Assembly: GCA_046563655.1 (NCBI GenBank) | Contig: CM102288.1 | Span: 6,262,001 to 6,326,000, forward strand | Origin: Yuukianura sp. NJ FZ-2021 | Lineage: Eukaryota | DNA: 64,000 nucleotides | Reading direction: 5' to 3' | In this document: one piece after another, positions 27,175 through 60,400 of the stretch | Layout of the letters: every line of letters begins with the position of its first letter | Numbering within the stretch: the first letter of the stretch is position 1 | Notes under the pieces: generated by a model | Database searches by the model: none | Told to the model about the DNA's origin: nothing | What the model saw: the letters and a program-made list of their open reading frames with translations, nothing else | Translations under genes and position numbers: made by a program

Positions 27175-27594
27175 TTAGTATCTGCAAACTTGGCTTTTCT
27201 TGCCGTTGTAGCGCCATCTACCGCCAGGCGTCTTTGCTTGACACTTCAAACCTCCGCAGCATTTCTTATTACCGCCGCAAGTGCCTTGCAGACTCACGCA
27301 CTTTGAACTTGGCTTTTTGTGGTGACCTTGACCTTTGACCTTCTGCTTCACTTTTGACCCGTGACTGACCTTGACTGGGTATTTGACAGAGTACTTGCCC
27401 AGAGGGACTCTGCTCCAATTGTAGGGGCGGTACAAGTGGGTACCCGGGTAGTAGAAGTGGGTACCCGGGTAATACTTTGTTACCCGGTATTTCCCAGGGT
27501 ATTTGTAGAAGCGACTGTCTCCTTCTGGGAATAAACCACAAATGAGGAAACAGAGAAGGATCCGAACAAAACACAAATCAAACTTCCTCACCAT
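27175..27594 (-). CDS. Secreted, Tyr/Lys-rich cationic protein with a C-terminal inhibitor-cystine-knot-like 6-Cys domain (single exon)
   Basis: Hydrophobic signal (FVRILLCFLICGLFPEGDS), YPG repeats, then CVSLQGTCGGNKKCCGGLKC...VC (C-x6-C-x5-CC-x4-C-xn-C). Confidence 0.75.
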   Translation of the reverse strand: MVRKFDLCFVRILLCFLICGLFPEGDSRFYKYPGKYRVTKYYPGTHFYYPGTHLYRPYNWSRVPLGKYSVKYPVKVSHGSKVKQKVKGQGHHKKPSSKCVSLQGTCGGNKKCCGGLKCQAKTPGGRWRYNGKKSQVCRY

Positions 27595-28674
27595 CACGAA
27601 CTTCCTTATTGCCAGTTTTGAAAAGCAAAAACTGAAATTTTAATGTTTTTTTTTTAAAGTTTTTTGAAAATTGTAGAACAAAATTGTGCGGCTAAGTTAT
27701 TGAACTTGAAAGTGGGGAACCTTGATGTTGGTTCTGTGTGCTTTCTGTCAAAATTCACTTCCGTGTGAGTTTAAAAATGCTAAATGTTAACAGTTAGATA
27801 ATGTTAAATTTTGAGAGTGTTAAAAATAAACTCCGTTAACAAAGTTTAGGTAGTTGACCTACTACACTTAAAAATTTAGTGACAGCACAGGAATTTGCAA
27901 AACGTTTTAAAATTAGCTTAACTTAAAAAGTTGAAAAATTAGAATTTCGAATTTAGTTCGAAAGTTAAATTTTGGTTCAAAAGTATACGTGGACAGTCAA
28001 TAACCTCAAGTGACAAAGGAGCGTTTGTGTTTTGAGCATTAAAATTTTTAGGTTCGGTGTTTTTAAATTTGAAGATTATGTACATTTGAGGATTTGAAAC
28101 CAAAACGAGACTAAAAAATAGAAAGTCAAAGTATTTTGCAAATTCCAAACTAAAATATTTGGTGCTTTAGGTTCATGACCCCAAGTATATCAATTGAACT
28201 TGCAAAAAATTCCTTCAAATTTTTTTTTACAGGAAAATGAGTGCAAAATGTTTACATTTTTTTTGTTTACTCACTCAAATGTTTATTTCTGTCACACCAC
28301 TCATAAACTGCGTCTTTTTTGCTTTTGTTTTCCTTCTGCGTATCAACACTTTGAAGTGTTTAATTTTTCATTTGAAATGTCTAGCTTTAGTATTGATATG
28401 CATAGCTATAGGATTGAGAAAAAACACAATAAAAAATGAAACAGATTGTACAAAGAAACGGAGAAGATGAGAAGTTTTGTGGTCAGTTGTGAAGTTTATG
28501 CTTAAATTGTGTGTTGTTTGGATCTCTGGACAACTCCTACTTCCGGTTTCGTCTTTTTATCACTCCAGAGAAAAGAAGAAAAGAAGTTTTTGTGAATTTT
28601 GCACATGTCATCTTGAATTTGAATTCAATTTCAATTTAGACTCAGAAGCTAGTGGTTCAGTTCATTGTGCAACA

Positions 28675-30277: not shown

Positions 30278-32511
30278 ATGATTGTTGAGCGTTTAATTTT
30301 GGTTTCGGGGGAAAGTGAGACTGAGTTGAAAAAAGAACTGGAGAATTTGAAACTAGCTGCGACAGAAGATGGTGCCAGTATGGAAGGAATTTTGCGGAAG
30401 TACAATACGCATGAGCACAAATCCTTCCGGGCGGCCATCCGAGCAGATTCACTGGACCAATTGATTAAGAATCTTGCTGAGGGAAATTTTCGTACTGCGC
30501 AGGCCCCTGCACAGCCTCCGTCCGTGGGTTTCATGTTCAGTGCTCAAGGCAGCCAGTATTTCGGAATGCTAAGGCCACTCTACGACAGTTTTCCAGTCTT
30601 CAGACATTCTTTGGACAAGTATGAAGATCTTGTGAAGAAAGTGACTGGAGAGGGATTCAAAGAAGGGATTTGGGAGAAGGATAATTTCTGGATTGTGCAC
30701 AGCCAGGCAGTGTTTGTGTGTCTTCAGATGGCGCTGGTTGACCTCTGGAGGTCATTTGGGGTCATTCCCCAAGTAGTCATGGGTCACAGGTCAAACAACT
30801 TATTTTAAAAATTTAGATTTTGTTTTGGAATTTTAATATTCATAGGAACGGAAGTTTCCAGACTTTTGCACTATTTAGATCATTTTTTAGAATAACCAGA
30901 ATGCTACGTATGCGTGCCAGGGCTTCGCCCCAGACATACATACCCATTCGTCTTATTTTCCTGACTTTTTCCAAAAGTCCTTCTGTAGAAAGTTAGAAGG
31001 TGTGATGCTGTTCTTAAAAATCTATGCTTTGGAATTTTTTAAATTTCCATAAAAAAGGAAAATGCACTGAAGTGAATTTGCTACTCTTATCCTGACTTTT
31101 TCCAAAAGTCCTTCTGTAGAAAGTTAGAAGGTGTGATGATGTTTTTAAAAATCAATACTTTGGAATTTTTTAAATTTCCATAAAAAAGGAAAATGCACTG
31201 AAGTGAATTTGCTACTCTTATCCTGACTTTTTCCAAAAGTCCTTCTGTAGAAAGTTAGAAGGTGTGATGATGTTTTTAAAAATCAATACTTTGGAATTTT
31301 TTAAATTTCCATAAAAAAGGAAAATGCACTGTAGTGAATTTGTTAGCCTAATCCTGACTTTTCCCAAAAATCCTTCTGTAGAAAGTTCAAAGGTGTGATG
31401 TTGTTTTAGGAAAACATATTTTAGAATTTTTTAAATTTCTCATGAATAAGGAAAGTCCACTTTTGTTTCCAAAAGTATACTCTAGAAAGTTAGGAGGTTC
31501 ATGATGGCGCTTTGAAAAATAGAATATCTTGTAAATACTTTCAATTTTGCTTGAATGAGGTCGATACATTTAAAAGAATTTTAGCCCAAACGTGACTTAA
31601 TTTTCATGCAAAATTTTGAGAGTAAACAAGTGGATTACTAACTATTCCGGAATTACTTTGTACATGTAACTTGTCGTTTATTTATCATTGGAGTTAATTT
31701 GTTTGTTGCTTAATCAGTTTCGGAGAATTCGGAGCTGCCGTGTACGCTGGAGCGATGACGCTGGAAGACGCTGTGGCTGCAGCCAATGATCGCTTTCGTC
31801 TCATCCGAACAACTGGACCAGCAGCAATGATGGGCATAGGAGGTTCAGAGGAGGTGAGATTTAGCACAGATTCTGAAGATTTTAATTTTTGAAAAACTCA
31901 AAATCTTGAAATTTTAAATTTGACTGCAGGAAGTGAATCGACTGATGGCGGAATTTGAAAAAACGGCAAAAGATGCCGATGATTGGCTGGACGTCTGTGC
32001 GGTCAATTCTCCCGAGGAAGTGCTCGTATCTGGGCCCAAGAAACGAGTAGAAGCTTTTGAGAAAGTTTGCATCTTAGCAGGACTGAAAACGCGTCCGACG
32101 GAATCTCCGTTTGCATTTCACTCGAGGGCAATGGATCCCATCATGGCCGAATTTGCACAAAGTATGAACCGAGTGAAATATTCAGAAACACTCAGTTGTT
32201 CGTATATTTCTGCCACTTACGGAAGAGAAGTGGAGAGTGAAGAATTAAATGCCGACTATTGGCTCAAACACCTCAGGCAAACTATGCACTGCGGAAAAGC
32301 TGTAGTTGAAATCTGGAAAAAAGCTAAGATCTTAATAGAAATCGGGCCGAGAGAGATTTTAGTGCACAAAGCTCGGGAAAACATTCGGATCACGACGAAA
32401 GATGAAGAAAATGGACTCATTTTGGCATCAGTCAAGAGACAAGATCCCAACTGCTTCTATGAAAATTTAGCACAACTTTTTCTACAAGGAATCAACATAA
32501 AACTCAGCTAA
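30278..32511 (+). CDS. Stand-alone PKS-type acyltransferase (KS-AT linker + AT + post-AT linker), 3 exons, 409 aa
   Basis: Exons 30278-30789, 31718-31853 and 31930-32511 join in frame (1230 nt). Motifs are FMFSAQGSQYFGM, GH|SFGE (catalytic Ser codon split by intron 1), AVNSP, FAFHS, YWLKHLRQ and IEIGP. No KS or ACP in the gene. Confidence 0.88.
30960..31480. repeat. Tandem repeat, 131-bp unit x~4, in acyltransferase intron 1
   Basis: ctgactttt recurs at 30961, 31092, 31223 and 31354. Confidence 0.9.
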
Positions 32512-34762: not shown

Positions 34763-37700
34763 TTACTTCAGTCGTATGATTCTGTCCAAGTTATCTCTAA
34801 AATGCTGCTGAAATAATTCAATATCTTGCCGACCTCTGAATTCGACTCGAGCGATGCCATCTTCAATGCGAACAGTCGTCAGTACTTTTGTGGCTGGCAG
34901 TATTGGCCACCCTCCGTGGATACTGCGAAGTATGTACTTGGCTCCTCCCACTTCAAACTCCTCTCTCCGAGGAGCGGAGTCAACGACAAAATCAAATAGG
35001 AATTGAACAGAGTCATGCTCCACCAATCGATGAACTCCTCCAGCCGAAGCCACGCCCATGTCAATCGGAAACAGCAAGTTGGCCTTTGATTTTTTCACAT
35101 CGGCAGCAACTTTTCTGATCACTTTCTCAATTGACCCGTCTCGGCCAAGGTCAAAGGTCAATGGAATCACTTGAGTAAGGTTTCCAAGTAGTTCATACAG
35201 TTGCGGATGGTCTCTGAGTGACAGAAAAGTTCCCACGGTGACCTCTTCGTCAGGGTCAATGACTTTTTCTGTCATAACTTGACCTGATAAAAACAAATCG
35301 TAGAGACTCACGCCAAATCGAGACGCGAAACTCCTCAAAGACTCTAATTCGTCTGCGGTTAAAGTTATCCACGACGTGAAAAATTCCTCGCTCGTGATTG
35401 GCCCAGAATTTGTGGAAATTTTCGGGGGCAAGTTGAAACTTTGTTTCCAAAAGGTCAAGAGGTCATTGATCTCGTCGTCTTTGTGGAAATTCTTTTGATA
35501 AAAAGCAAAATCAGCATAGTTTATGATTTCTGTATTAAAATCTTCGTGCAGACGGAGGAGTTCTTGGACAAAAATGGACTGTGCAGAGTAGTCCATCGCA
35601 ATGGAATGTGACACGACCAAAATTTTTTGAATTTTCCCGCTTTCAGTTTCGAAGAGACCAACCCTAAGTGGTATTTGAACAGACAGGTCAAATTCTGTTT
35701 GAACAAAATCTTGAACAGCTTCTGTGCAGTTTTTAAAAAGTTGAACTGGCATCTCCACGGATTCCAAAATTTTCTGGATTTTCGTCCCAAATCGACTTTT
35801 TGGATAAACCGTTCTTAAAATTACGTGTTTTTCAACAAGTGCAGAAATTCGGACTAAAAATGGTTCCAAATTTTCCCCGCCTGAAATTTCAAATTCGAAA
35901 ACCACGTTATGGTGATGCCTTTGGCGGGAAACCAAAATTCTCTCTTGCGAAGTTGACAGTGGAGCTTCTTTCAAATTTGGTCTTTTTGGAATTTTGTCAT
36001 AATTTTTGTCTGATGTTGTTTGAATTTCTGTAGATGTCAAGAAACTTTCAAAACTGCCTCCACTTTCCATGACCTTTGCAGGATTGACCTCGAGGTCAAG
36101 TTTTTGAAACAAAAGGTTAATGACCTTGATTGCCAACAAACTGTTGCCTCCGAGGCTAAAAAAGTTGCTTGTAAGGTCAACCGAATTCGGCGGGAGGCAG
36201 AGAACGTCTTCCCAAATTTGAGCAACGACGAGTTCCTCAGAAGATTTTGGCGGGTTTTCCAAATTTTGTGGAGTTTGGTTCAAATTTGGAGCCGATTTTT
36301 TGGAAATGTTTGAATTTGGAGGTGAAATTTCTTGAAGCTGCGTTCGATCAATTTTTCCATTTGGGGTAAGCGGGAATTTCGAAAGGCAGATGAGTGTTGT
36401 AGGAATCATGTACTCGGGAATGTTCAATTTCAAAAATTGGCGAACTTTTTTTGTTAAATTTTCCCGCTCAAGATGAGTGCTAGCGACGTTGGATTTTGGA
36501 ACGAAGAATCCAAGTAGTTGATTCCCCTCCTTCAACGTTTTTGAAATTACAACTGAAAATAATTTTTGATACAAAAAATATAAAACTAAATTATTTTTCA
36601 AAATTTTATGCTTTCGAAATTACCCGCTCTGGAAATTTCCGGTACTTTGAGCATAGTGGTTTCCACTTCCAAAACTTCGATTCGAATTCCACGGACTTTG
36701 ACTTGCAAATCCTTTCTGCCTAAAATTTGAATTTTCCCATCCACTTCTACTCCGAAATCTCCAGTTCGGTACAATCTCCCCCAAATTTCCGGTACGTTGA
36801 AACTGTTTCCCGGTTCGGTCAAAGTGTTTCCCGGGTTTTTCAAAAACGGATTCTTTAGAAACTTTTGTTTAGTTAAATTTTCGTTTTTCAAGTACCCCCG
36901 GGCCAGTCCTGCTCCGCTCAAACAAATTTCTCCAATCGCCCCAGGCGGAACCGGCTTCAAGTCGTTGCTTAGCAACAAAACTTTCTTGTTTGCCACGGTT
37001 CTGTCGAAACTGAAACTCCGCCCACTCGTGACATCCGCTGTTAAGCTGCACATCGTCCCTTCACTGTTTCCATACACATTGTAAATTTTTACATTTGGAT
37101 TGTGCCTTAAAAAAGTAGAGTGGTGCGCAGACGTTAAGGGTTCCCCACCTACGGCGATTCTTTTTAACTTCCTGAGTCTGTGCAGATCGAACTGTGCAAC
37201 AAGAGATGGCGTTCCATCAATATGAGTCACTTGGTTTAACTCAAAGTAGTCCAGAAGGGCCTTGGGTTGCATGAGAAGGTCAAAGGGCACCATGACAAGG
37301 GTCAGCCCTTGAGAAATTGACAATGTTAAGGGCTCCAGAAAAGCGGCAAAGGCGTAGTTGAAGAGCTGCACAACGACTTCGTCTCGAGAGAGATCGGGAT
37401 ATCGAAGAGGGTAGTCGAGACACTGATTGACGACAGCTGATTGGCGGAGCATAACTCCTTTCGGGGTTCCCGTCGTTCCCGAAGTGTAGACCACGAGGGC
37501 AAGGTCGTTGACCTCAGATTTGCTGACCTGCGTAAGATTGCTGACATCTGACGTGCTGACCTGATTAGGATTGCAGACCTGCAGGTCAAACGATGAAATG
37601 TCAATGACTGGACATGACATTTGTGGTAGTTTGGATTTTGATGCTTTGTCTGTCAATAGAGCAATCGGCTGACAGTCGTCCAGAATCAACTGAATTCTGT

Positions 37701-38655
37701 TTGGCGGGTAGTTCGGATCGATCGGAACATAGGCTCCGCCCACTTTCCAGATTCCGAGGATTCCAAAGATGATGAGTTCAGTTCTGTCCAGGCAGAGGGC
37801 AATCAGAGCGTCTGATCGGAACTGAACTTTTGATCGGATGTGATCAGCAATTTGATTGGCTCTTTGATGGATTTGAGCGTAAGTGAACTTCCGATCGCCA
37901 GCTACCAATCCAATTTTGTTTGGAATGCGTCGTACAGTTGAGTCAAACAACTCCGACATGTTTTTGAATTCGGATTTCGGATTTTGAGTTGTCTCGGGAA
38001 AATTTATTGTGTCTGGAGTGAATTTGAGTTTTTCTAGCGGGAGTTCCTGGAAATTCAAAATTTGGTCCAAAATCAACTGTGCAGTGACAGCAAGTTGGGA
38101 CAAGGTGACGTGACCTTGACTTCCTTCCTGGCCGTTGCCTGAGTAGACGAGGTCAAAGGTCAAGCAGTCCGTAAGTTCTGTCACGACTACTTTCAAAGCT
38201 GGTTCCATGTTGAAATTTTCTATTTCCGAGTTCGATTTTTCGAATTTTGATTCTTCTTTGCCTTTGAACTCGAAAATGACGTCAAATAGCCCAATTTCGG
38301 CTGGAGTCAAAGCACAGGAGGCACATTTGAATTTTTTGGCTCCATTTTTAAATTTTTCCAAAATTTCAGTTTTCCCGGGAAAATCATGGTTCATAAAATG
38401 AGCCAATCCAAGTGCTTGGTAGTAAAGTACTGTGGTGTCAGCGTAGCAGTAGACGTGAAGGAGTTGATGCACGACGCCAACAAAAATTTCGTCGTACGCG
38501 ACGCCGTTTTCCAAAAATTCACGAAATTTAGTTTTTTGAATTGAGAATCTCGCGGCGTCCGGGGTTTTCCCGAGGCTTTCCCGAATGTCCTGACGATCTT
38601 CCAGATTTTCAACAAACTTCCGCATGCAATTTCTAGCACAAAGTTCAGAAGCCAT
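34763..38655 (-). CDS. Single-module non-ribosomal peptide synthetase (partial C - A - T - C), 2 exons, 1273 aa
   Basis: Two ORFs are joined by a 71-nt GT-AG intron (36553-36623). A-domain cores: FTYAQI, KVGGAYVPID, YTSGTTGTPKG, NVYGNSE, GEICLSGAGLARGY, YRTGD, GRKDLQVKVRGIRIE, PEYMIP, NGKIDR. PCP motif FFSLGGNSL. C-terminal condensation-like domain: APLSTSQER, HVILRT, HSIAMD, YADFA. Confidence 0.92.
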
Positions 38656-39162
38656 TTCAGATTTTGAAAAATTCCCGTTGTATCAAATTTTGAATAGGTT
38701 TTCAAAAATTTCAAAGAATTTTGAAAACGATTTGAGTCGAGGAGAAGGAAGTGGTGATTGGTTGAGTAAGTTTTGAATTGGAGTGAATCATAAGTTTTAT
38801 AATTTGGGGAAAAGCGTAACAATTCTTCTCATTTCTCCATTCAAATTGTCGTTAAGATTGTCGGGATTCCCGGAAAATTTTGATTGGCTGCTGGATCAAT
38901 CCGGATTTCGAAATTAATTTTAAATTGACATTTTCTTAATTCTTGTGACGGTTGTTGTTATTCATTTGAAATGGATTGAAAATGAGCAGTTAGCTCTAAT
39001 TGCCTTTTAACAACGTCGTTAACTTCAAATTCAAAAGTGTGGAGAGTGACCTCAGTCTCCTCAGGTCACATTCACACAAACTTCAACATTCAAAACACAA
39101 CTCACTTCAAAGTATCTCAATTTCACTGAAGAAAGTTAATCAGACCTCATTCCACAAAAAAA
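38656..39162. promoter_or_regulatory. Putative bidirectional promoter region between the NRPS and the GT8-PKS
   Basis: The two start codons are head-to-head, about 0.5 kb apart. An Inr-like tcagtc is at ~39052. This is positional inference only. Confidence 0.45.
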
Positions 39163-42100
39163 ATGAAAGGTAAAGAAGTAGCGAATGTTGTTTTTCTTTT
39201 GGGAATTTTTTAATACAATATATGTTAAAAAATTAATTGTAATAAAATTTTCGTTTTTAGTTTACATGTGTGTCTCTAAGTAGTGAAAGCTACTTTGGGT
39301 ATCGAAATTGTCATGTCTGTCCGTCTGTCTGTCTGTGTGTTGCCTTGTTTATTCTGTCTAAATTTTTGTGTATATATTTAATTAATTTCAATTTATTTAA
39401 ATATATTATATGTTTTTAGCAGGAGAGAAGGAGTCGTGGGTGACGGTGGTTCTGGATGATCGTATGGGATGGGAAGCATTGGTTCTTGCTGCATCCATTA
39501 AACGGCATCTCACACTGCGCAAACTCACTGTTCTCATCGAAACTCAAAAAGTTTCTGGAAAAATGCAGTACGAATTCAGAAATAATCAAAGATGATAAGA
39601 TTAAAACAAAGTTTAAAATAAATTTTTATTATATTTTATTATATGAATATGTTTTTAGAGAAATGTTGAGAGGAGCTTTCGACTACGTCGAGACTCTACA
39701 GAATGCGAGTGTTGTGTATGGCGGAAAAGAACATTTGAACGACAAGTTCTGGAAGAGACATCTCTGGAGTCTGCTGCTCTGGAAGAAGTGCGTCTTCATC
39801 GCTTCAGATTCACTCGTAAACTACTTTGACATAAACTTAGATTCTAAACTTTTGTTTTTGAATTTCAGTTTTTGGATTTTGAACTTTAGGTTTTGGAGTC
39901 AATTGAAGATTTGTTTGACCTGGACGAGTTTTCTGCTCCTACTGTTAGAGTTGGCGCGCAACAAGGAATGTCGGTTGACTTGTTTGTTTTTCAACCGAAC
40001 AGAGAAACACTCAAAGCACTAAGTGCCAAATCCAAATTTGGTATTACCGATGTAGTATCATAATCAGAATGAAAAATGTTTTTCTTTTAAAATTTAAAGG
40101 AAATTTTGAAACTGAAATTTGAAATTTTGAAATCAGGTGACGATGCAATTCTGAAGCATTTTTGGAAAACTTGGACAGCTACTGCAACAAAGAAAATCAA
40201 GGACGGAGTGGTCTTCCCTCTGTTGTCTCAGCAGAGCCATCTACAGTAACTAAAAAACGTTTTCAAAAAACGAAAAAAATTTAAAAAAGATTTGTTTTTC
40301 TAAAATTTGCAGTTGTCAACAGCCAAGAGTTGTTCAGTTTGGGCAAAAGCCTTGGACACACAAAACGTATGCTGGAAAGTGGTGCCAAATTTTAGCAGAG
40401 GACGTACTGCCACAACTTCAGTCTTGTGAGGTAAAGAAGTATTTTAAAAGTTATGTTAAAAATTAACAAATTTTTTCAAAATTTTAAAGTTTTTGAAATT
40501 TTGAAAATTTTGTGCTTTAACAGCTCCTGGAATTCCTGGAAACGTCGTCCAAGGAGCTTGGCATTCCACTTTCGAAAGCGATGTCCAGCACTGTAACTGT
40601 GAATATGGCTGAAAACTGGTCAGACTGCATTGCAGTTGTGGGCATGAGTTGTCGGTTTCCTGGAGCCAACTCAGTTCAAGAGTACTGGAACCTCCTCGTG
40701 GACGGAAGATCCGCCATCCGTCCATTTCCGGATGGACGAAGGACGTTTGAAGCCGTCGGAATCCGGAAGGACGTCGCAGGATTTCTGTCCTGCGCAGTGG
40801 ACGAGTTTGATGCTAAATTCTTTGGAATCAGTCCGCGAGAGGCACCACTGCTCGATCCTCAGCAACGACATCTTCTGGAAGTCATTTGGGAGTCACTGGA
40901 AGATGCAGGTATGCCATTGGCTCTTGAAGCAAATCCAGCTTTCTGATTGGCTGTTGAAGTAAATCCAGCCTTCTGATTGGTTATTTTTAGGCATCGATGG
41001 ATCACTGCTGAAAGAAACACCCACTGGCGTTTTTGTTGGCGTTTTGACGCAGGATTACGACCGAATGCTTCCGAGAAACGGCTATATCGGAAACGAGTAC
41101 CACCATCGCTTTCTTGGAAACGCAATCAGCGCTATCGCTGGAAGAATTTCGTTTTTTCTGGGATTAACTGGGCCAAACATGGCAGTTGAATCTGGTTAGT
41201 AGTATAAATTCACTACAATAATGTGCATGGCCAAAGAAAAACGGCGGTTTTATTTTTAAAAAATCTCACTTTACCCCAAATGTCGCTCAAATTCTAAAAA
41301 CAATAGTTGAAACAACAGGTTATATTTAAAACAATAGCTAAAACTTGAAACAATAATTCGTTCTTTTTTGTAAATCAGGCTGCTCCTCGTCCCTGGCAGC
41401 TCTCCATCTTGGCTGTCAGAGTCTGCGAAGTGGTGAGTCCAACTTGGTGATTAGCGGTGGAGTTAACTTGATTATCATTCCACGCAACTCCTCCGTCGCT
41501 GGAACTGACGCTGGAGAAACTTTGAAAAAAGACGCTGATGGTTTCATCTCTGGTGAGGGTGTGGCTACAATTGTGCTTAAGCGTTACGCAGACGCTGTCA
41601 GAGATGGAGACAAAATTCGAGCCATAGTTCGTGGTTCTGCGATTGGAAACGACGGAGGAATGATCAGTGGCGGCACGGCTTCTGCTGATGAACAAGTTCG
41701 TGTGTACCGTGAAGCTTTAGAAAATTCGCATGTGCTGCCGGAGGAAATTTCATATGTTGAAACACACGGCCCTGACGAGACGGAGGTGACGGCCCTGAAC
41801 GAAGTTTACTCAAAAACGAACAGAGCAGAACCGCTTCTGATTGGTTCCGTCAAACCGAACATCGGATACTGTGAGTCTGCTGGAGGAATTGCATCAATTA
41901 TCAAACTGATTTTGGCCTTTGAGCGGGAAACTATTCCAAAGAATTTGAATTTTCAAAATTCAAATTTGCCACTTCAAGAATTCAAAATCAAAATTCCGGC
42001 TACAAATTTACCCTGGGGTGGAAACAAGCGACTCGCTGCAACGAGTTCGTTTAGCACTACCGGAACACTGGTACACTTCATCCTACAATCCGCGGACAAA

Positions 42101-44935
42101 ATGCCGGCTGAAACAGTAACGGCGGACAAAATGCCGGCTGAAACACTACCACCCAAAACAGAACCACAGCTTGTTCTAATCTCAGCTAAAACGCCGGAAG
42201 CTCTTGAAGCCCAACTGAAGAATTATGAAAACTTTTTTGAAAAAAATCGCGATTGGCCCCTGGACGAAATTGCTTTTGCGACGAATCTTTGCCGAACGCA
42301 TTTCTCCCACCGAGTGGCCGTTTTTGCCGAAAACACTGCCGATTTAATTCAAAAACTAAAATCAAAAGATTTTACCAGTACCGGGAAAGTTTCAAATTCA
42401 AATTCAAAACTGCCGCCAATTGGATTTCTCTTTACTGGACAATTCACGCAATATTTGGGAATGGCTAAAGGCCTGTACTCACTTTTCACGTCGTTTCGCG
42501 AAACGCTTGACTACTGCTCAGAAGTGTATCAGCGTTTAAGCGGTTTTTCGCTTTTGCAAATCATGTTTGAGGACGAAACAAAATTGCGGGAAACCGAATT
42601 CTCGCAACCAGCGATTTTCTGTGTTCAAATTTCTCTTGTTAAGCTATGGGCCCATTTCGGAATTCAGCCTTCGGTTGTTCTCGGTTCAAGTCTTGGAGAG
42701 TACGCAGCCGCAGTAGCTGCTGACGTCATGAGCATCGAAGACGGCTTGCGATTGGTCGTTGGACGGAGTCAGTTGGCCAATCAGATGAAGCCAGGCAGAA
42801 TGCTGGCCGTGAAGGGGTCATTGACCTTGGTTGAAAAAATGCTGGCGGAGGTCAACTTGACTGAAACTTTGGACATCGCTGCAGTGAATTCACCAACTCA
42901 AATAATTTTAGCTGGACCACCAGAGGCTGTGGAAGCATTTGAAAAATGCTGCGCAGAAAGAGAAATAAAGACACACCGTTTGGCTTCTGCGCAGGCCTTC
43001 CACTCTAAAGATATTGAAGACATTCTGGATGAGTTTGGTGAAATTGCACAGAGTATTCAGTACAATTCTCCGACTTGTACTTACATTTCTTCCACTCTCG
43101 CCAGACGACTGATTCCCGAAGACTTCCGAGCAGAGTACTGGCAGTGCCATCTACGAGATCCAATTCAATTCTCTAAAGCAGTTTCACTTTTGACGAATTC
43201 CACTCAAATTTTGATCGAAATCGGACCACAACCGGTTCTACTAGGTCTTGCAATGGCCAATTACGGACTCCATTCAAATCAAAATCAAAGTCAAAATGAG
43301 GCAAAAAGTCAAAATCAACGTCAAAATGAGGCAAAAAGTCAAAATCAGCTCGTGTGTTGCCCATCTATGCGCCGAGTTGAAGAGAATTCTTACACTTTCT
43401 ACACAGCTTTGGCCAAACTCCACGTTTCAGGAATTCCAATTGACTGGAAATCCCATTTTGCGGGAAAATCAAAAAATTTGAAATTACCGCTCTACCCGTT
43501 TCAGCGCCAAAAATTTTGGTTTGTTCTGTCCGACTACACGGATGAAGAAGACGACAAAGATCGTGACGGGATTTTCATCAGCGCAGAACGAATCCACCCA
43601 ATTCTGGGCTACAAAATTCCAACTCCCGGCAGAATTCATTTTGCCCAATCAAAACTCCTCAAAGAATTGCCCTACTTCAACCATTGTACAATGGCTAATG
43701 CTCCGTTTCTAACTGCTGGTGGGGTCATTGAACTGTTTCTGGCAGCAGCCAATCAGAAGCGACGACAGTTAGCAACAGCCAATCAGAAACTGCAACTCAA
43801 AAGCATTCACTTCTGTGACTATTTGCGATTGGACAAAGACACAACTATTCACACTTTGATTGACGACTCACTTGTGACTTTGTATGAACAAACAAACGGA
43901 TCGTGGAACGTCATCGCAAAAATGGAAATTCCGCCGGAAAAAGAAGAAAAAAATACAATTGGATTTGAAAAGAGTCGTGATTGGCTGAAACGAGAAATGG
44001 AGGATTCTGATTGGTTGAACAAATCTGTGGAATTGGAAGTTACAGACTTTTATGAATCTGAACCTGAAGTTTATTTTGGAAACCATTACAGAAGAATTAA
44101 AAAATTGCGAAAATTTGAAGACGGAACAATTTTAGGAGAGTTGTGCACTTTTGTGCAAGATCCGGCGATTCTGGGTCAAAGGTCATCGACATACATAGCC
44201 TTCCCTACAGTTTTAGATTCCATGCTCCATTGTGCCTTGCTAGCACAGAACTGCACAGGAACAGTTTGTCTTCCAAAGAAAATCCACGCTATCACGTGGT
44301 TCGGAAAAACCGCGAATTCGTCCGAACTGGTCGTCAGAGCAGATAAAACTGGTGTTTCTCTTAGCTCGAGATCTGGCGACATTTTGGCGACCATTGAGGG
44401 TGTCGAATTCCCTGAAAAGTCGGATGAGCAGATCAGAGAAAACAGGAATTTGTCAACTACTGCAACTCCTGATAAAAAGTCAATGGCCTCTGCTGAAATC
44501 CAGGGTCAAAGGTCAATGACCTTTGACCTCGGCGATTCTCACATCACCATGGAAGATTTAAAGGACGAGAGACTGCGTATTCTGGCTGAAATTCTTGCAC
44601 GACCATCGGCGAAACCAACCGCTGCTCCTGACCGGAGTTACGACATTGTCGAAAAACCGCTGGAAATGTCGCAGAAAAGTGATCCAGGAGAAGAAATGTC
44701 GCTGGAATCGCTTGAAAAAAGACTGGAAAAGTTGGTGAGACAAACGCTGCGACTTCCGGAGGGAGAGATGCTGGACATGGACCAGAACTTGGCAGAGATT
44801 GGAGTGGACTCTCTGATGGGTCTGGAGATTGGCACGAAGATCCAGGACTGGATTCAGCACAAGCAAATTCCACCGACCATCGTCCAGGAATTTCCCACCA
44901 TCCGCACACTTTTGGCTGCACTCACGCAACAATAG
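39163..44935 (+). CDS. Glycogenin-like GT8 domain fused to a type I PKS module (GT8-KS-AT-DH-ACP), 9 exons, about 1611 aa
   Basis: Exons 39163-39169, 39420-39567, 39659-39815, 39890-40040, 40137-40245, 40313-40430, 40524-40908, 40991-41194 and 41379-44935 total 4836 nt, with all GT-AG phases compatible. GT8 part: SWVTVV...ALVLAASIK...RKLTVL, KCVFIASDSL|VLESIEDLF, FVFQP, GDDAIL, VVQFGQKPW. KS: IAVVGMSCRFPGA, LDPQQR, ESG|CSSSL. AT: GSSLGE, AFHS. DH: HPILG, PTVLD. ACP: GVDSL. Confidence 0.85.
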
Positions 44936-45789: not shown

Positions 45790-47769
45790 ATGGAGCAATC
45801 TCTGGTGGAATCGCTCCCACTTCTGGGGAATTCCAGAAGGTTGAGCGTAGCCCACGAGCGACCGTCGACTCTGAAGCGATTTGGCGGAATCCTATTGGCT
45901 CTCGTGGCGACATTCGTCTACTCCCTGGCGACATTGATTCTGAAGACTTTCAGTTCCTACCATCCGTTTTCTGTGAGTCTGTGGAGATTCCAGGGCATGA
46001 TCATCCCCTCTGTCCCTGTCATTCTCTTCTACGCATGTCTCCCATCCACCAATCAAAATGGATATGCAAAAACATTTGGAATTGGACCAGGAGCTCACAA
46101 ACTACGCACCAACATCAACATTATTCTACTCATCTGCGTAACAAAACTTCTCAAAACTCAAAATTTCAGAACACAAAAAAAATTCAGAATCTTTTTGTAA
46201 TCTTTCTCAAATTTTCCATTTCTTGTTGTAGGTTCGTTCAGTGGTGGGATGTTCGAGCACAGTTTTTCAGATTTACGCAGTGGATCGGCTCAGTTTGGCC
46301 GATGCATCGGTGATCGTGTTCAGTTGTCCAGTGTTTGTGACTTTGTTTGCACACTGTTTCCTGGGTGAGAAGACTGGCTGGGGATCGGTGCTAATCGCCA
46401 TCTTGACTTTTTCTGGAGTCGTCATCATCGCTAGACCACCGATCCTCACTGGACAAAGCGCCATGGACAAAAATACGCTCGTAAGTTAAACCTCCTAATG
46501 CAACAGAAATTTTCTGATCACGTGTGAAATTTTGAAATTTTCCGACCACTTGTGAAAATGAAATTTTCCGACTACAGTGGATTCTCTAAATAAGGGACAG
46601 GAGCTCCTCCTCTTTCTCACTTTCACTCGAAGTCGCGGTACCGTAAAGTTTTAATTTTGGAGGGAACGTATGTTTCAGTTTATCGGCTTATTTTTGTTAC
46701 AAACTGCGCAACAGCGCACAAACTGCGCAACAGCGCACAAACTGCGCAACAGCGCACAAACTGCGCAACAGCGCACAAACTGCGCAACAGCGCACACTTC
46801 GAAACAGGAAATTTTCATTAGAATGGTGTTCCTAGCCTTAAATTCCATATAACTGACCGTTTACCAGAAATCTTACGGTACTGGGGGAGGCGCCTACTAC
46901 CAATCCTCCAATCGTGATTTTTTCCCTTATTTAGAGAATCCACTGTACTTGTGAAAATTTGAAATTTTCCGACCACTTCTGAAAATGAAATTTTCAAAGA
47001 AACTCGTCCAGAAAGTTTAGAAAATCTTCAACAAACGACAGAAAATCGACTACAGAAAATCGTCGGTTGGGTGGAGATTTTAAAGAGAATTTTGTGTTTT
47101 TTAGGAAGGGATCCTGTTTGCCGTGGCTTCCATGCTCACAGCGACTGTTGTGATTTTGATTTTGCGTTTTCTGCGTGACGTGCACTACTCCGTCGTCACA
47201 ATTTCCTACGGTGTGATTGGCTCTATTGAGTGCCTCATTTTGGCAACTTTTCACGGCGTGCTTGACCATCCGCACGGAACGCACGAATGGACTCTCGTGT
47301 TGGGCTTGATACTCTTCACTTTCCTCGGACAAACACTACTAATCTTGTCACTCAAACTGGAAGAAGCTGGTCCAGTAAGTACTGCACAATTAAAGTGCTA
47401 AAAATCAATGAAATTCAATGAATTCACGGAAACTCATGATTTTTAACTTCACTCAAACTCTTGACTTTGAAATTCAAAGAAACTATTTGTGATTTTTGTT
47501 GAAGGTGTCTCTGTTGCAGTCTACTGACGTTATTTTCAGTTTTATTTTGCAATACATCTTTCTCGATATTTCACCGGATAAATACAGGTAAGCCTAACTA
47601 AAAAAAAACACCAGAAAATTTTGAAACTTTCAAAAAAAAAAATACGAAAATTGAGAAAATATTTCAATTAACGTAACCTTGAATGATTTTTAGTATGGTT
47701 GGTGCTTCTATTGTGATACTGGGAGTGAGTCTAACTACACTGCGCAAATGGCTCACTACTCAAAACTGA
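45790..47769 (+). CDS. EamA/DMT-superfamily transporter (SLC35G-like), multi-exon
   Basis: Two EamA repeats with about 10 hydrophobic helices: 'SLWRFQG', 'YAVDRLSLADASVIVFSCPVFVTLFAHCFLGEK', 'GVVIIARP', 'GQTLLILSLKLEEAGP|VSLLQSTDVIFSFILQ'. Stop TGA at 47767-47769. Confidence 0.88.
46575..46945. mobile_element. TA-flanked MITE (Tc1/mariner/pogo-type) in a transporter intron, with an internal 19-bp minisatellite
   Basis: TA|cagtggattctctaaataaggga ... tcccttatttagagaatccactg|TA gives perfect 23-bp TIRs. caaactgcgcaacagcgca x5 at ~46700-46796. Confidence 0.85.
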
Positions 47770-47791: not shown

Positions 47792-48342
47792 TTACTTCTT
47801 GAGTTCCCGGATGAGTTTTAGCAGCTTCTCCCCAGTCGCTCCCAAGATGGTTCCTACCTAAAACAACAACAAATAACATAAAATATAATAAACATAAATA
47901 TATAAATATCTCTTATTGAATAATATAACATCGAATTGAGAAACCCAGGATAACTCAAATCCAGGGTACCGATGGATTTTGATATTTGTAATAAAAAGTT
48001 TACTTTTTCTTCATCGAGGAATGCAATGATGGTGGGCATGCTTGAGATTTCAAATTCCTCTGCCAGTTCTTCAATCTGATCAACATCCACCTTCATGAAG
48101 ATGACATCAGAGTATGTTTTGGAGAGGCGATCAAACTCCGGAGAAAGCAGTTTGCATGGGCCACACCACTGGGCGTAAAAGTCCACCAGCACCAACTTCC
48201 CTCCAGCTTCTTTAATCTGACTCTCAAAGTCATCCTGCAACCAAACAAAGTTAAAACAACTCAATTAACTCAAACTCAATTAATTAACAACCAATTTTAA
48301 AGTTAAACTCACCCTGTCCAGGACATGATGTACGAGCGACAT
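47792..48342 (-). CDS. Trx: Thioredoxin, 3 exons
   Basis: MSLVHHVLDR|DDFESQIKEAGGKLVLVDFYAQWCGPCK...KVDVD...ISSMPT...|VGTILGA. Confidence 0.93.
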
Positions 48343-48856: not shown

Positions 48857-49168
48857 TTACTGGGGAGTCTTGGCCTGTTTCCTGAGTAGCATGTAGATCT
48901 TCTCCTTGATCCAGTCCTTGGTGTAGGGTGCATAAGTGGACGTGCTCTTCTGGTACACGAGACAAGACAAGTCGGCCAGTTGATCCACAAAGTCAAACAG
49001 CTGAGAGATGTCGTACGTGATTGATGGAGTGTGTGGATTCTGGCGCTTGAGATGCTCTTCATAGATCTTGCACACGCCTTCCATGCATTCGTTGACAGAC
49101 TCGAAGTCACTGTATGTCCGACTCTCCGGTTTTGGACCCGGTTGCATCAGTAAGATCGTATGGGCCAT
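48857..49168 (-). CDS. ERH: Enhancer of rudimentary homolog
   Basis: [45 protein letters not shown]...[23 protein letters not shown]...[14 protein letters not shown] is the highly conserved ERH sequence. Confidence 0.97.
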
Positions 49169-54400: not shown

Positions 54401-57400
54401 AAGTGAGAAAGCCGGATCCGGGAGCCTGGTCGATCCCTAGGAGGAGACGGACGAATGTGATGAGGTAGTCTTTGACAAAAGCTTGGTACAACAAAGTGTC
54501 CAGCATGGATGCGGAAAAAACGCTTCCGGCGGCAAACGGAAGACGAAACATGTATGAAATGTGACTCCCACGCTCCTTCTCTTTCTAAATTAAAAAACAG
54601 GAATTTTGAAAGTCTTAGCAGGTAGCTTTTCTGTAATATTTTGAGATTTGTCTTTGAAGTTGAAAAAAAGGAACCTTTTCCATGCGTGAGAGGTGGAGAG
54701 CGTATGCATCATGTGCTCTGAACTGCATGAATCTCATGTTGCTGGACTGCGACAGTTCTGTGACGATCTTGATGTGGGGGAAGAAGCGAAACATTGTCTG
54801 TACTGCGACGATTGTGTTGCAGTCTGACAAAGTGTCTTCCTCTGCTGAGTTGGAGAGTTCCTTGTTAACGACGACTACGTTGTCAGCTAGTGTGATTCCT
54901 GCTCTGAGGAGATCATCCAGGTTGTCAATGGATCCACACATCCAGTAGACCATTGGGAAGTGGGACACTGCGTCCAGGAAGGCAGCGTCTGGACGTCGCT
55001 CCAGCAGCAGAATGATTGGATTGAGTCTGGATTTGGGCCGGAAGTGGGCTCGCAGCGGCACAATGAAGTTGTAGATGGCTGTAGAAGCGTAGTCGGCACT
55101 CAGGATGATCGTAGAGTTCTGCCAGTTGTAGTCGTAGGCGTTCCGGTTAGAAGTATGCTCACATGCCTAAAGAAAAACAACATTTTTTGAACAATTTTCA
55201 CTTTTTGGAAACGTTTTTACATTATTTAGGATTGACAGGAATTTTTAAAACATTGAAATTTCCGGAAAATTCATGCATTTATCACAAGATTCACAGAGGC
55301 ATTTATGTCCCTCCATATTTTTTAAGGGACAAGAATTCTACCAGTGCTGGCTGGGGCCTCGCCACAAACCGTTTGAATTTTTTTCTGAAACTTTTTACTT
55401 TTGATTTTGTCGAATTTTAAAATTGTCGGAGAATACATATGGAGGCATTGATGTTCCTCCATATTTTTTAAGGGAGGACAAGAATTATTTCCTTGCTTGC
55501 TGGGGCCTCGCCGCATTTTTTTCTGAAACTCTTGACTTTTGCGTTTTGAATTTGTTTTGGGGTTTACAATTTGAATTTTTTTAAAACTTTTATGCTTTTT
55601 TTTGAGTTACCTGAGCTAGCTGGAGGCAGCAAAGTGGTTTTTTGTCCCTTAGAAGGTAGCATAGAGTGGGGGTGACTCCTATGAAGGGGGCCACTGGGGG
55701 GAATCCCTTGATGACCTTGTTGGAACTGTTGTCTGAAGGGGCCCCCAGCCAAGGGACCTCATCTTCAGCTTCATCATCCGAACCCCCTCCCTCCTCGTCC
55801 CCCTCAACATCCCCCTCCACTGCAAAATCATCGTCAACTGACGACGAAAACGATTCTGGAACAGGCAGAATACTTGGACGACGACTCTCTGTAAAAACAC
55901 AAAAATTTTCGAAATTTTCAACTCAAAATTTCAAAAACTTAAAATTTTGGGGTAATTTTCTTAAAGTTTTCGGTACCTCTCCTGAGTGCGAGATTTGGTG
56001 GGAGTAGCAAGTTGCTTTCAGTTGGTTTGGCCATTTGCGTTAGATGTTTGAGAGCATTTCCAGCCGATTCTTCTCCCACGCCGATCGGTGGTACACCACT
56101 TCTCTGTGCAGTATTTGGAGTGGGCGTTGAATTGGTGACGACTGCCCGTAGTTCTACGTTTTGTGTCGCCAAGGGGACGTTAACAGGAGAGGAGGCGACG
56201 TTGTCGTCAAAGTCAGAGTTTTCCTCTTTTGTGATTGAAAAGTAGAAGCAAATGTCGCTCTTCTGCATGATGTGTCGTGGTCCAGGGTTAAGCAGAATCG
56301 TATCTTCGTAGAATTCGGGTAACTGCGCAGGTCGAACTCCGGTTAAAGCAACGCCATACTTGCGATGTGCATGGAACGACGCATAAGTGAAGCTTTTCCC
56401 TTCGTATTCCCCGAAAAACCGAGAATCCCCTAGCCGAATGTGGTAAACTTCGTTGCCCGAACAGCGACCGTAGAGACGATGCCATTCTTCACGTGAAATC
56501 TGTCCCTCCCTGAAAAAAAAAAATTTCAAAATTTTGTATTTCTGAAATTTCAGTATTTCTACTGTTTTATTGTCTTAGCGGTAGGGTCATGATAACGTTC
56601 CAATTCCATGTTTTGAAGACTAGAGCCTGATATTGCAATTTTTTGCGAGAACTTTTTTTTAAATCTAATTTTTTTTCATACTTGTGTATGAAGGTCAGCT
56701 TTTCACGTGACATATGCTTAGATCACGTGAAAAGCGGAACCATCAATGTCAAGTTTAGGACTGTCTTTGGAATTATTGAAAAGCTCCCGCCTTTTCTGTT
56801 AGCCGGGTATTCTGGAGACGTTGATGGGAGTGACGGGAGGAAATGGAGTGAGAATGAATTCAACCACTCTCCTGTCACTTCCACTTCCAGTCACAGTCAG
56901 CATGTCACATGACTTTCTTGTCACCCGGGTTTTACCCAACCAGAATTAACATAATTCTTATCAAATATGTGACCTTTGACCTTATAATGAAAATGTGACC
57001 TGGTGACGTACCTTCCTCTGGACGTGTGGAGAAGGAGCGTGACGAGGGTGGAGGTTCCCGGGAAGAGGCAGTTGTTGGCGAGGAGTGCATATTTGAACTC
57101 GTCTTCACAGACGACGTGTTCTGCAAATCTGACGTGGATTTTGTTTTCTGGTCTGAAGATTTGAATGTACTGGGGAACTGCAGGGGCGTAGTCTTTGACA
57201 GCCCAGGATCTGAGGATTGTGTGTTCGTCTGCTGCAGTTTTGTCTGCGTAGTTTCTGGCTGCGAGGATGAAACAGGCCTCTGCTTCGTCCATTCTCGCTC
57301 GAACCAAGTCTGCGTCCTTGAGGCATGACCCCTGCAGGTAGATTACACGGGCACTCCAAATAGGGATCTGCAGAATCATGCGCATTGTCGTGTCCAGTTC

Positions 57401-60400
57401 CATTGGAGACAGCAAAACGACGTAGTAATCCTAAAAAACGGGGATTTGAAAAATTTAAGAAGAATTCCATGCTTGCTAACACTTCCGCTCTAGTCTAACG
57501 ATTGGATCTGTAGTAGAATTCATTCAAATTCAGCAGTACTCTAATTTTCGGATGTGATAGAATTGCCAAAAATTCAGCTGTACTCTGTTAGCTGTTTTAG
57601 ACCAATGTTAGTGGATTTTGATTTTCTTCAATAGGTTGGGCAATACCTCATGTTTTTCCGATTTTACAAAAAGTGTTTTTCGATTTCAGGGCATCGTAGT
57701 CGTAAATACCGTCGAATTTTTTAAATTTTGTCTACTTTTTTTTTCATTTTTTTATTTAACAAGCGAAGTAGTACCAAACCCGTTAAAGAAAATTCACTTT
57801 TCGTTATCAAGGAACCTTGTTTTGGAGGTAGTATTTGAATCGTGAAAAATTGAATTTTGGTGGGTATGAGCCTATATTAATATTGACCAACATTTTTGTG
57901 GTGATTCTGACCTGTAGGAGAGGATGTGCGTAGAATTCGTTGAGAAAGTCCATGATTGTGTCTGCGTGGAGAGTTGTTGAGCAGACGACGACATGATGTT
58001 CGTTGTGTGCTCGGTGGGCCGAGTAGGTCCCACCCAGTTTCTGTCTCTCCATCCACGTGAAGGCGAGTTGTTCAAACTGGGTGGGGAGGACGATGAGTGC
58101 TATGCAGATCATGGCCACCATGAAGAGTTGTGATGGCCAAATGTCAGGCACAAAGTCTCCGTAGCCCACGGTGGAGAAAGTGACGACGACAAAGTAGGTT
58201 GCCTGGAAGAGGTTTGGTCGTTTGTGTCCTGCGCGTTGGAAGTGCTGGATGCCGCAGACGGAGGTGAAGACGAGGCAGACGAGTGTGGCTGACAGAATGG
58301 TGAGTTGCTGGGCGAGAGCGGACTGACTGCGTTGCATTGCTCGGTGGAGGTCATTGAACATGTTTTCGAGAGCGTACTTGGCTAGCCAGAGGTTGAGGAA
58401 GACGGGGATAAACATGTTGCGCAGAGGGGAGTGGAACATGGACACAATGAACGGCACGGTCGTCGTCAACTCCAGCACGAATTGGCGCGAAATCACTTGC
58501 TCACACAGGTTCCCCTGCAAAAACATCCAAAAGTTTTAGTTTGGGCCGAAACTAAGAAATTGGATCGAAGAGTTTCAGAAGTTGGATGAAATAGGAATTA
58601 ATTTGCATCGAAAAGTTTCAGATATTTGGGGAAATAGTTACGAATTTGGACCGAAAGGCTCAAAATGTCTAAAAATTGGTTCGAAACGTTGTGTATGGAT
58701 ATGTTTGTGTTTAGGAAATGAGTTTCATTACGTCGGTGTTTTTTTTGCGTGTTTATGAAAGGTTAAAAAAGTTGTGTTTTTGAAATGTGAAAGGTCATTG
58801 TGTCTTTGTGACCTACTTGAAGGATCTGGGTTTGTTTGGATGAGGAAGAAAGACTGGGAAGTTGTAAATTTGTTTGAGTTTGGTTGGCGGAAGGAATGAG
58901 TGACGGGTGGCTGTCAATTTGCGGCTGAGGTGGATCGATGTGTGTCTTCCCTCCATGTTGAGGAAGTGCACATGAAATGTGATCTTTGACCTGGCCCATA
59001 CTTTCCACTTTCTGCAGCTAATCAACAGCATCCCACGCTGAGGTACACTCCTTTCACAATATCCTACACAAAACTTGTATTGCTAGGCAACTACAAAGTT
59101 TCTAAAGTTTTCCCGTCATCAAGCATTATGCATTACATGAAATATTCCTAATACTGTTGGAATATTTGCCATGTTTCATGAAATATCTGGAATATTCCAT
59201 GAAATATCTAAAAATTTCATGAAATATCGCAATATGGTAATACTGTAGAGCTGTAACGGTGATGTAATGTATGCAACCTCTGATATTTGTGCTGAATGGG
59301 CCATTGCTTGAAGGTATTGTGTGATTACATGCGGTGAATGGCCCATTATTCTTTTAGATAGATGCTGCTGGGATTGTGGCTGTTGGGTCGTTGACCTTTG
59401 ACCTTTTGGCTCCTATTTCTGTCTCTCCCTGCCAAACGACTTTCTTTCTTAGACTTAGCTTTTACTATTGTCTTTGTTGGCTTGAGGATGTGTTTTGAGG
59501 CTGAGAGAAAGTAGAAGTTACCTTGTAGCCGAGGTAGGCGAGTAGAATGGACTCCGACAGAGAGATGACTGCAAGGAATATTTGGAGGAGCCACATGTGG
59601 AGGGGCCTCTTGACCCACCAAATGGCGTCCCAGTTGATGATTGGGTTGTCACGGAAACGCTCCTCCGTCAAGTTCAGTGCAGCCTCGTACTCCCACTTCT
59701 CCGTCACCTCGCACCCGTAACTGGAAACATAACATAAAATTCAGCTACTAATAACTGTTCTGACCTATTCTGACCAAATTTTGACCAGCCTGAGCCAAAA
59801 CTGACAATTTCTGACTGGATTTTGACCATTTCTGGCAGCATTCTAACAAAATTACAGTCAAAATGACAGGAGTAGTAGTTGGTTAAGGGATATTTTTAGT
59901 TTTAAGGGTTTTGAGACTAACGAGATTTCGGAATGACTGGGGGAGTGACCTTGACGTTTGAGTGGCGAAATAAGCTCAAATCCCAATTAGTTTTCTTGTG
60001 CTTCCTGCATGAGTCAAAGTGAGTTAGTTGGACTCAATTGAGCAAATCAAAACCACACTTTCACCATAGCAGGAAAACTTCAATCAAAAACTTCCGTCCT
60101 TCACTTTCACTCTTACAAGAAGGGCTTCCAACTCCAAATTCAATCATCTTTTGAAGTTCCCTCCTCCGACTTTACTATTTTGAAGTTTGTTGCTTAATGG
60201 CCTCATTCACGCCCCTAATTGACTTAATCCACGCTCTCTCACCTCAACTCACCACTTTTAGCGGATTTCACGACGTTTAAACTTAGGTTGAGCAGCTTTC
60301 AAACTTCAAAGTCATCTCCTCAATCTTATTTCGTCACAGTATTAATCTTTCAACTTTAGTTTTCACAACTTTTCAAACTTTTATGCAATATTTAAAAAGA

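Follow-up and report, generated by a model that had tools for sequence, protein, structure and literature searches.

A diverged glycogenin-like domain predicted to be spliced in frame onto a bacterial-type polyketide synthase in an animal genome

Within a 64,000-nucleotide stretch of the genome of Yuukianura sp. NJ FZ-2021 (assembly GCA_046563655.1, contig CM102288.1, positions 6,262,001 to 6,326,000 of the forward strand; hereafter the window, in whose own numbering all coordinates are given), six small exons that resemble glycogenin are followed by a polyketide synthase (PKS) of bacterial type. Glycogenin is the glycogen-priming enzyme. In our in silico gene model the two parts are probably one gene, spliced in frame, encoding a glycogenin-like domain and then ketosynthase (KS), acyltransferase (AT), dehydratase (DH) and acyl carrier protein (ACP) domains. 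If both parts lie on one mRNA, the product would therefore be a fusion protein, since the upstream ATG is in frame without a stop. The wider reading that we favor, with modest confidence, is a chimeric nine-exon gene composed of a diverged glycogenin copy and a bacterial-type PKS, in which the head is most likely inactive and structural.

Gene model

The full model comprises nine exons between positions 39163 and 44935 and has 1611 open codons. Its parts, with the junction intron, are as follows.

39163..39169, forward strand: exon 1, the ATG and 4 nt (ATGAAAG, 7 nt), with a phase-1 donor (AAG/gtaaag), read from the sequence.
39420..39567, forward strand: exon 2, residues 3-52 of the glycogenin-like part, ending in phase 2; best PDB match glycogenin-1.
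39659..39815, forward strand: exon 3, residues 52-104, with a degenerate DxD motif (Ala100-Ser101-Asp102); best PDB match glycogenin-1.
39890..40040, forward strand: exon 4, residues 105-155; best PDB match glycogenin-1.
40137..40245, forward strand: exon 5, residues 155-191, with a GD..IL-type motif only; open frame and canonical splice sites.
40313..40430, forward strand: exon 6, residues 191-230, with a KPW motif and a phase-0 end without a stop; donor GAG/gtaaaga.
40431..40523, forward strand: junction intron, 93 nt, GT..AG, guanine-plus-cytosine (GC) content 0.16, with in-frame stops.
40524..40580, forward strand: 19 linker codons from the acceptor to the first ATG of the KS frame, GC 0.53, assigned by coding score.
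40581..40908, forward strand: rest of exon 7, an alternative ATG and the N-terminal part of the KS (PF00109, E=1.3e-27, exon residues 36-128; tblastn).
40991..41194, forward strand: exon 8, middle part of the KS (PF00109, E=1e-10; tblastn).
41379..44935, forward strand: exon 9, the KS active-site Cys and C-terminal part, linker, AT, DH, ACP and the stop TAG at 44933-44935 (Pfam, PDB).

Exons 1 to 6 are all bounded by GT..AG and join to 690 nt, or 230 codons, with zero stops; the start context of the ATG at 39163 is cacaaaaaaaATGaaag. The five exons of 109-157 nt have a GC content of 0.42-0.47, compared with 0.15-0.25 in the introns between them (67-250 nt). Two further introns, at 40909-40990 and 41195-41378, interrupt the KS-coding part, and the eight introns of the model are without exception GT..AG, with lengths of 67-250 nt and a GC content of 0.15-0.40. 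An earlier reading of the same letters, made without database searches (the sequence-only reading), had placed the exons and the junction at these coordinates, and all of them were reproduced to the base.

Likeness to glycogenin and origin of the 5′ part

Single exons were used as phmmer queries against 177,635 distinct PDB sequences. Glycogenin-1 was the top match for exon 2 (E=0.0044; query 4-45 on residues 4-44 of chain 7q0b_E), for exon 3 (E=0.19; query 23-52 on residues 77-106, including kcvfiasdsl aligned to KCVFMDADTL) and for exon 4 (E=0.32; query 1-44 on residues 107-149), and nearly all chains listed in these searches are glycogenins. The matches are collinear, and those of exons 3 and 4 abut at 106/107. 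Although the single E-values are modest, chance is excluded because three independent queries reach one small family, in order and abutting. In the protein Atlas, the best named cluster for exon 2 (score 0.90) carries PF01501 in 21% of its members. Judged from these alignments, the likeness to glycogenin is real for about the first 150 residues, and over the last ~75 it consists of short motifs only. Of the approximately 230 amino acids that the sequence-only reading had described as collinear with glycogenin, the portion in exons 2-4 thus stands, and the portion in exons 5-6 found no support from the tools.

Some matches were discarded. The match of exon 6 to Crov588 (E=9.9e-15), in which none of the individual stretches passes, is regarded as a repeat-protein artefact, and the Atlas search with this exon returned no usable match. 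Two metagenome loci from a scan with exon 3 (L001 and L002) were dismissed as chance, as their likeness is limited to a short word of the RHLWSLLL type and a tblastn search of both loci with the 230-residue part found nothing else in them. Within the window, tblastn detected no second GT8-like copy.

The intron positions bear on where the 5′ part came from. Exon 2 ends in a split codon (CA/A, phase 2) aligned to glycogenin residue 48. In human GYG1 the exon 2/3 boundary falls at c.143/144, which is codon 48 in phase 2, according to the available portions of two reports (PMC5735306, PMC13737462). The same portions describe a recurrent variant in intron 2, c.143+3G>C, that leads to exon-2 skipping and p.Asp3Glufs*4; the variant also appears in the accessible text of PMC5203857 and PMC7046021. 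Because the frameshift begins at codon 3, GYG1 exon 2 starts at c.8 and the first coding exon is 7 nt long. To the extent that these excerpts define the human gene, two intron positions are therefore common to the 5′ part and GYG1, namely that following a 7-nt first coding exon (phase 1, codon 3) and that at codon 48 in phase 2; the comparison covers these two boundaries of the 5′ part. Because both coincide with GYG1, the pattern argues that the 5′ part derives from an animal glycogenin gene by duplication at the DNA level rather than from the bacterial donor of the PKS, and it supports the idea of the sequence-only reading that the GT8 exons originated in a host gene.

The junction

Exon 6 ends in phase 0 at 40430 (TGTGAG/gtaaag), and the acceptor at 40524 (ctttaacag/CTC) is also in phase 0. 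The first seven bases of the junction donor, gtaaaga, are identical to those of the intron 1 donor. The KS frame opens at 40521, 3 nt before the acceptor, and contains no ATG until 40581. Positions 40524-40580 score +12.3 bits for coding potential in the KS frame, exceeding all 1428 noncoding 57-nt windows (maximum 8.9), a comparison set that is the same as that used for training. The junction intron scores -42.8 bits in frame, and -12.7 bits were obtained for the 57 nt immediately preceding the ATG at 39163. The single-gene model is favored because the 93-nt intron is typical and AT-rich, the phases agree (0 and 0) and the linker looks coding and has no ATG before 40581. We infer that splicing removes the junction intron in vivo. 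Joining in frame to the KS exon, as first proposed from the letters, is also the best gene model obtained here, on the strength of the matching phases, the open frame and the linker coding score.

The polyketide synthase

Exon 9 contains Pfam matches to Acyl_transf_1 (2.5e-54), Ketoacyl-synt_C (1.7e-25), CurL-like_PKS_C (1.5e-19), PP-binding (6.2e-09) and PS-DH (2.3e-05). The Pfam order is KS-AT-DH-ACP, with CurL-like and RhiE-like KS-AT linkers, and all matches exceed their cut-offs except that of one of the two DH models. CurL is the best PDB match of the exon (E=2.3e-127), ahead of DEBS modules, and no animal fatty-acid synthase is present among the 60 best chains shown. Among the 120 database matches listed, bacterial type I PKSs rank first, with 33-36% identity. 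The blocks aligned by tblastn with three bacterial PKSs agree with the exon model, which places introns inside the KS.

The KS active site departs from that of its relatives. In the region 41379-41960 the second His of the triad (NIGH) is replaced by Tyr (NIGY), giving Cys-His-Tyr, and five residues are deleted after the first His, in the HGTGT loop; the Cys and the first His are kept. The second His and the full loop are present in all 12 aligned bacterial homologues, and neither change occurs in any of them (0/12). Judging from these residues, the KS may be non-elongating or otherwise unusual. The remaining domains retain their signatures: the AT keeps its Ser (GSSLGE), with the His (AFHS) and the conserved Arg aligned, the ACP has GVDSL, and the DH motif HxxxGxxxxP is intact.

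Short tandem duplications occur at three places in the PKS-coding part. At 42092-42138, after the KS, an in-frame duplication with a period of 15 (3.1 copies) encodes a repeated peptide. At 43279-43347, in the AT-DH linker, a second in-frame duplication (period 30, 2.3 copies, 97% match) does the same. The third, at 40916-40980, lies in a KS intron and consists of a 30-nt unit repeated 2.2 times with 91% match; this intron is the most GC-rich of the model (0.40).

Catalytic state and role of the glycogenin-like domain

In the exon 3 alignment, the residues opposite glycogenin Asp102-Ala103-Asp104 are Ala-Ser-Asp, so that the DxD pattern is lost at its first position. The second Asp of the motif and the Lys aligned to glycogenin residue 86 are both kept. 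The segment aligned to glycogenin residues 10-15 differs throughout (vldd.m and TNDAY), as does that aligned to residues 133-135 (svd and NSG); we take these two segments of glycogenin to be in contact with UDP-glucose. Because of the Ala at Asp102 and the altered positions that would contact nucleotide and sugar, catalysis appears to have been lost, and the domain is most likely a pseudo-glycosyltransferase rather than a glucosyltransferase. According to the available sections of PMC5203857, the DxD motif of human glycogenin-1 (Asp102-Ala-Asp104) coordinates the catalytic Mn2+ and is essential, and the disease substitution Asp102His abolishes autoglucosylation; given the Ala at this position, the supply of a sugar or nucleotide-sugar that the sequence-only reading had suggested is not supported.

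The end of the domain is also altered. About 75 residues come from exons 5 and 6, for a stretch in which glycogenin presumably has about 110, and the whole domain is about 30 residues shorter than the glycogenin catalytic domain at the length we assume for the latter. We take this C-terminal third of glycogenin to hold the acceptor Tyr and the third metal ligand, a His. The acceptor loop is probably deleted, as judged from the shortened exons 5-6 and the assumed length of glycogenin. The C-terminal tail of glycogenin, which binds glycogen synthase, is absent, and the KS follows the domain directly. Targeting to glycogen particles via glycogen synthase, another role envisaged in the sequence-only reading, consequently finds no support. 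Glycogenin is a dimer and PKS modules act as dimers, and a dimerizing head is proposed for this reason. By this analogy a dimerizing role is possible.

Proposed explanation

We propose that the 5′ part originated as a copy of the glycogenin gene of the animal itself and has since diverged, with intron positions retained. This copy would have been joined in frame, via the 93-nt intron, to a CurL/DEBS-like module that itself gained introns, and would provide the synthase with its promoter, its start codon and a structural head at the N-terminus. The predicted structural head, itself inactive, may dimerize the module; alternatively, it could be an expression leader, kept simply because translation must pass through it. 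A divergent control region of about 0.5 kb may be common to the chimeric gene and a neighboring nonribosomal peptide synthetase (NRPS) gene, and the KS-AT-DH-ACP module, with its unusual KS, might hand its acyl chain to this NRPS.

Alternative explanations

Several observations weigh against the explanation proposed here. (i) The coding score is largely GC-driven and was measured against its own training set. (ii) AATAAA and ATTAAA are absent from 40400-40600, and the region past the PKS stop likewise lacks both, so that their absence at the junction counts for little. (iii) The ATG at 40581 lies 13 codons upstream of the start of KS homology in tblastn, a normal position for a stand-alone start. 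(iv) The linker, with only 19 codons, shows no clear homology; in a comparison with bacterial pre-KS linkers, 41 of 712 KS alignments begin before query residue 19, and the five that were inspected are weak. (v) A homologue search with exon 4, at the lengths labeled "longer", gave no match and thus no orthologue with which to test the join. A HMMER search of a representative library with exon 7 is uninformative on orthologues and N-terminal extensions, as the 150 matches listed are multimodular PKSs of 4082-7969 amino acids ranked by their summed KS matches. (vi) PF01501 is absent from the 120 PKS relatives listed, and it matched none of five single exons of the 5′ part (queries of 35-52 amino acids) at E<=1. 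(vii) In the PDB searches, exon 5 had no match at E<=10 and no tool found glycogenin likeness in it, and exon 6 had no glycogenin match. (viii) The degenerate KS triad is as compatible with decay of the locus as with repurposing.

The alternative that deserves most attention, although we consider it rather less probable than the joined gene, is that there are two genes. Retention of the intron would end the upstream frame at TAA 40467-40469, 12 codons after 40430, to give a 241-residue glycogenin-like protein, and the PKS would start at the ATG at 40581, placed before its KS homology as in many stand-alone PKSs. The PKS could then have its own promoter, or could be the downstream gene of an operon and receive a spliced leader at the acceptor at 40523. 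Spliced-leader trans-splicing has been reported in amphipod and copepod crustaceans, and both groups are among the best matches of the enhancer-of-rudimentary homologue (ERH) in the window; an Rfam search of the whole window gave no match, spliced-leader RNA included. The local sequence speaks against separation. The 12 read-through codons score -15.0 bits and lie in a stretch with an intron-like GC content of 0.10-0.16, and a strong donor stands exactly at 40431. Little room is left between the genes, with 56 nt from the stop to the acceptor and 111 nt from the stop to the ATG at 40581, without AATAAA or ATTAAA, while several hundred bases separate other neighboring genes of the window. Moreover, the 57 nt upstream of the ATG at 40581 look coding and outscore every one of the noncoding windows. 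If the genes are nonetheless separate, the locus would hold a diverged paralogue of glycogenin in tight linkage with a PKS, which is far less remarkable.

Two other explanations differ in what they assume about function. The fusion could carry an active, altered glycosyltransferase that acts on the polyketide-peptide product, on the carrier domain or on itself, or that provides a sugar-linked starter. Its N-terminal place is where PKS loading domains sit, the second Asp of the DxD motif and the Lys at glycogenin residue 86 survive, and a 230-codon frame still open despite strong divergence argues for selection on the protein. These points are countered by the Ala in place of Asp102 (see the sections of PMC5203857 cited above), by the change of all positions at glycogenin 10-15 and 133-135, and by a C-terminal third that is shortened and unrecognizable. 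An active domain of this kind is unlikely. We consider a broader version about equally doubtful, in which the head, repurposed for example as a loading domain that primes with sugar or glycosylates itself or the product, works with the NRPS and an acyltransferase as a three-gene animal cluster. At the other extreme, the locus could be decaying, with the GT8-like exons and the PKS as functionless relics whose frames are left over from a recent inactivation. Catalytic residues are indeed lost in both N-terminal domains, by DxD to AxD in the first and by His to Tyr plus the loop deletion in the KS. However, the 1611 codons run over nine exons without a stop or frameshift, with canonical splice sites throughout; neutral AT-rich sequence would have gained stops, and the 33-36% identity to the nearest bacterial PKSs together with the gained introns indicates an old gene. 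Intact signatures also remain in the AT (Ser, His and Arg), in the DH (HxxxGxxxxP) and in the ACP (DSL). Decay is thus very improbable, and a chimeric gene with a most likely inactive, structural head remains our preferred explanation.

Genomic neighborhood

The genes closest to the chimeric gene and the other landmarks of the window are listed below.

34763..38682, reverse strand: NRPS gene, head-to-head with the chimeric gene (AMP-binding 7.7e-66, AMP-binding_C, PP-binding 1.4e-11, Condensation 8.9e-26).
30278..32415, forward strand: acyltransferase-like gene of at least two exons (Acyl_transf_1 profile positions 2-90 and 136-316 in two open reading frames; tblastn with three bacterial PKSs).
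47854-48264, reverse strand: thioredoxin exon, with ERH just upstream on the same strand.
48860-49168, reverse strand: ERH, intronless and complete.
54615-58535, reverse strand: exons of a slowpoke-type BK potassium channel (Ion_trans, Slo-like RCK, BK_channel_a), an ordinary animal context.

The likely start of the NRPS gene is about 0.5 kb from the ATG at 39163. About 240 residues without domain assignment precede its adenylation domain. The PKS, the NRPS and the acyltransferase-like gene all lie within about 15 kb, which suggests that they may form a small biosynthetic cluster of the animal genome. The other genes of the window comprise the slowpoke-type BK channel, a receptor tyrosine kinase with fn3 domains, TRAPPC10, thioredoxin and the intronless ERH, and animal genes lie on both sides of the PKS. 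The best named ERH matches are pancrustacean arthropods at 82-90% identity; the exact ERH protein sequence is absent from a collection of 15 billion proteins. On this sequence evidence the genome is animal and arthropod-like, and the PKS is read as a real resident of it because the KS contains introns, the tblastn blocks fit the exons and animal genes occur on both sides.

Two further observations concern the flanks. Downstream of the PKS, at 46699-46796, a perfect 19-nt tandem repeat (5.2 copies, 100% match) lies in or adjoins a membrane-protein-like gene. On the reverse strand, an open reading frame at 27178-27639 weakly resembles the Pfam family Toxin_12, an ion channel inhibitory toxin, with a score of 17.2 bits (E=0.0083) that stays below the cut-off of 21.

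Significance and comparison with known systems

Bacterial-type PKS and NRPS genes are rare in animals, and the route by which such foreign genes come to be expressed is poorly understood. If the proposed gene is real, a foreign synthase would have received, in frame, the promoter, start codon and first exons of a host gene and would clearly exemplify domestication by exon capture. The PKS would moreover carry a type of domain that is not reported on any other within the titles and abstract starts that the literature search covered. No PKS with a GT8 or glycogenin-like domain was found there or among the 120 PKS relatives listed, a scope short of a comprehensive architecture search. The odd KS triad and the dead-looking glycosyltransferase together offer a test case for pseudo-enzyme domains in megasynthases.

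Compared with glycogenin (GYG1/GYG2; CAZy GT8, PF01501), the head is collinear in exons 2-4 with residues 4-149 of the catalytic domain, and it shares the Lys at residue 86 and the second Asp of the DxD motif. It differs in the replacement of the first Asp by Ala, in the unconserved segments at residues 10-15 and 133-135, and in a last third that is shortened and unrecognizable to the tools. As far as the available text on GYG1 goes, two intron positions of glycogenin genes are kept in the 5′ part. The synthase shares the KS-AT-DH-ACP order of the cis-AT modular type I PKSs CurL (PDB 4mz0) and DEBS but resides in an animal genome and contains spliceosomal introns. From bacterial cis-AT PKSs it is further distinguished by the Cys-His-Tyr triad and five-residue deletion of its KS, by GSSLGE in place of GHSxGE in its AT, and by the putative host-derived GT8-like domain that would occupy the N-terminus instead of a docking or loading domain. 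Among animals, NRPS and PKS-NRPS genes presumed to have come from bacteria include the nematode nemamide genes and the NRPSs of bdelloid rotifers and springtails, according to the accessible portion of PMC10531068. Unlike those cases, the present PKS has no close relative among the 120 proteins listed; like them, in so far as that portion describes them, the locus appears to hold bacterial-type megasynthase genes that have become resident in an animal genome.

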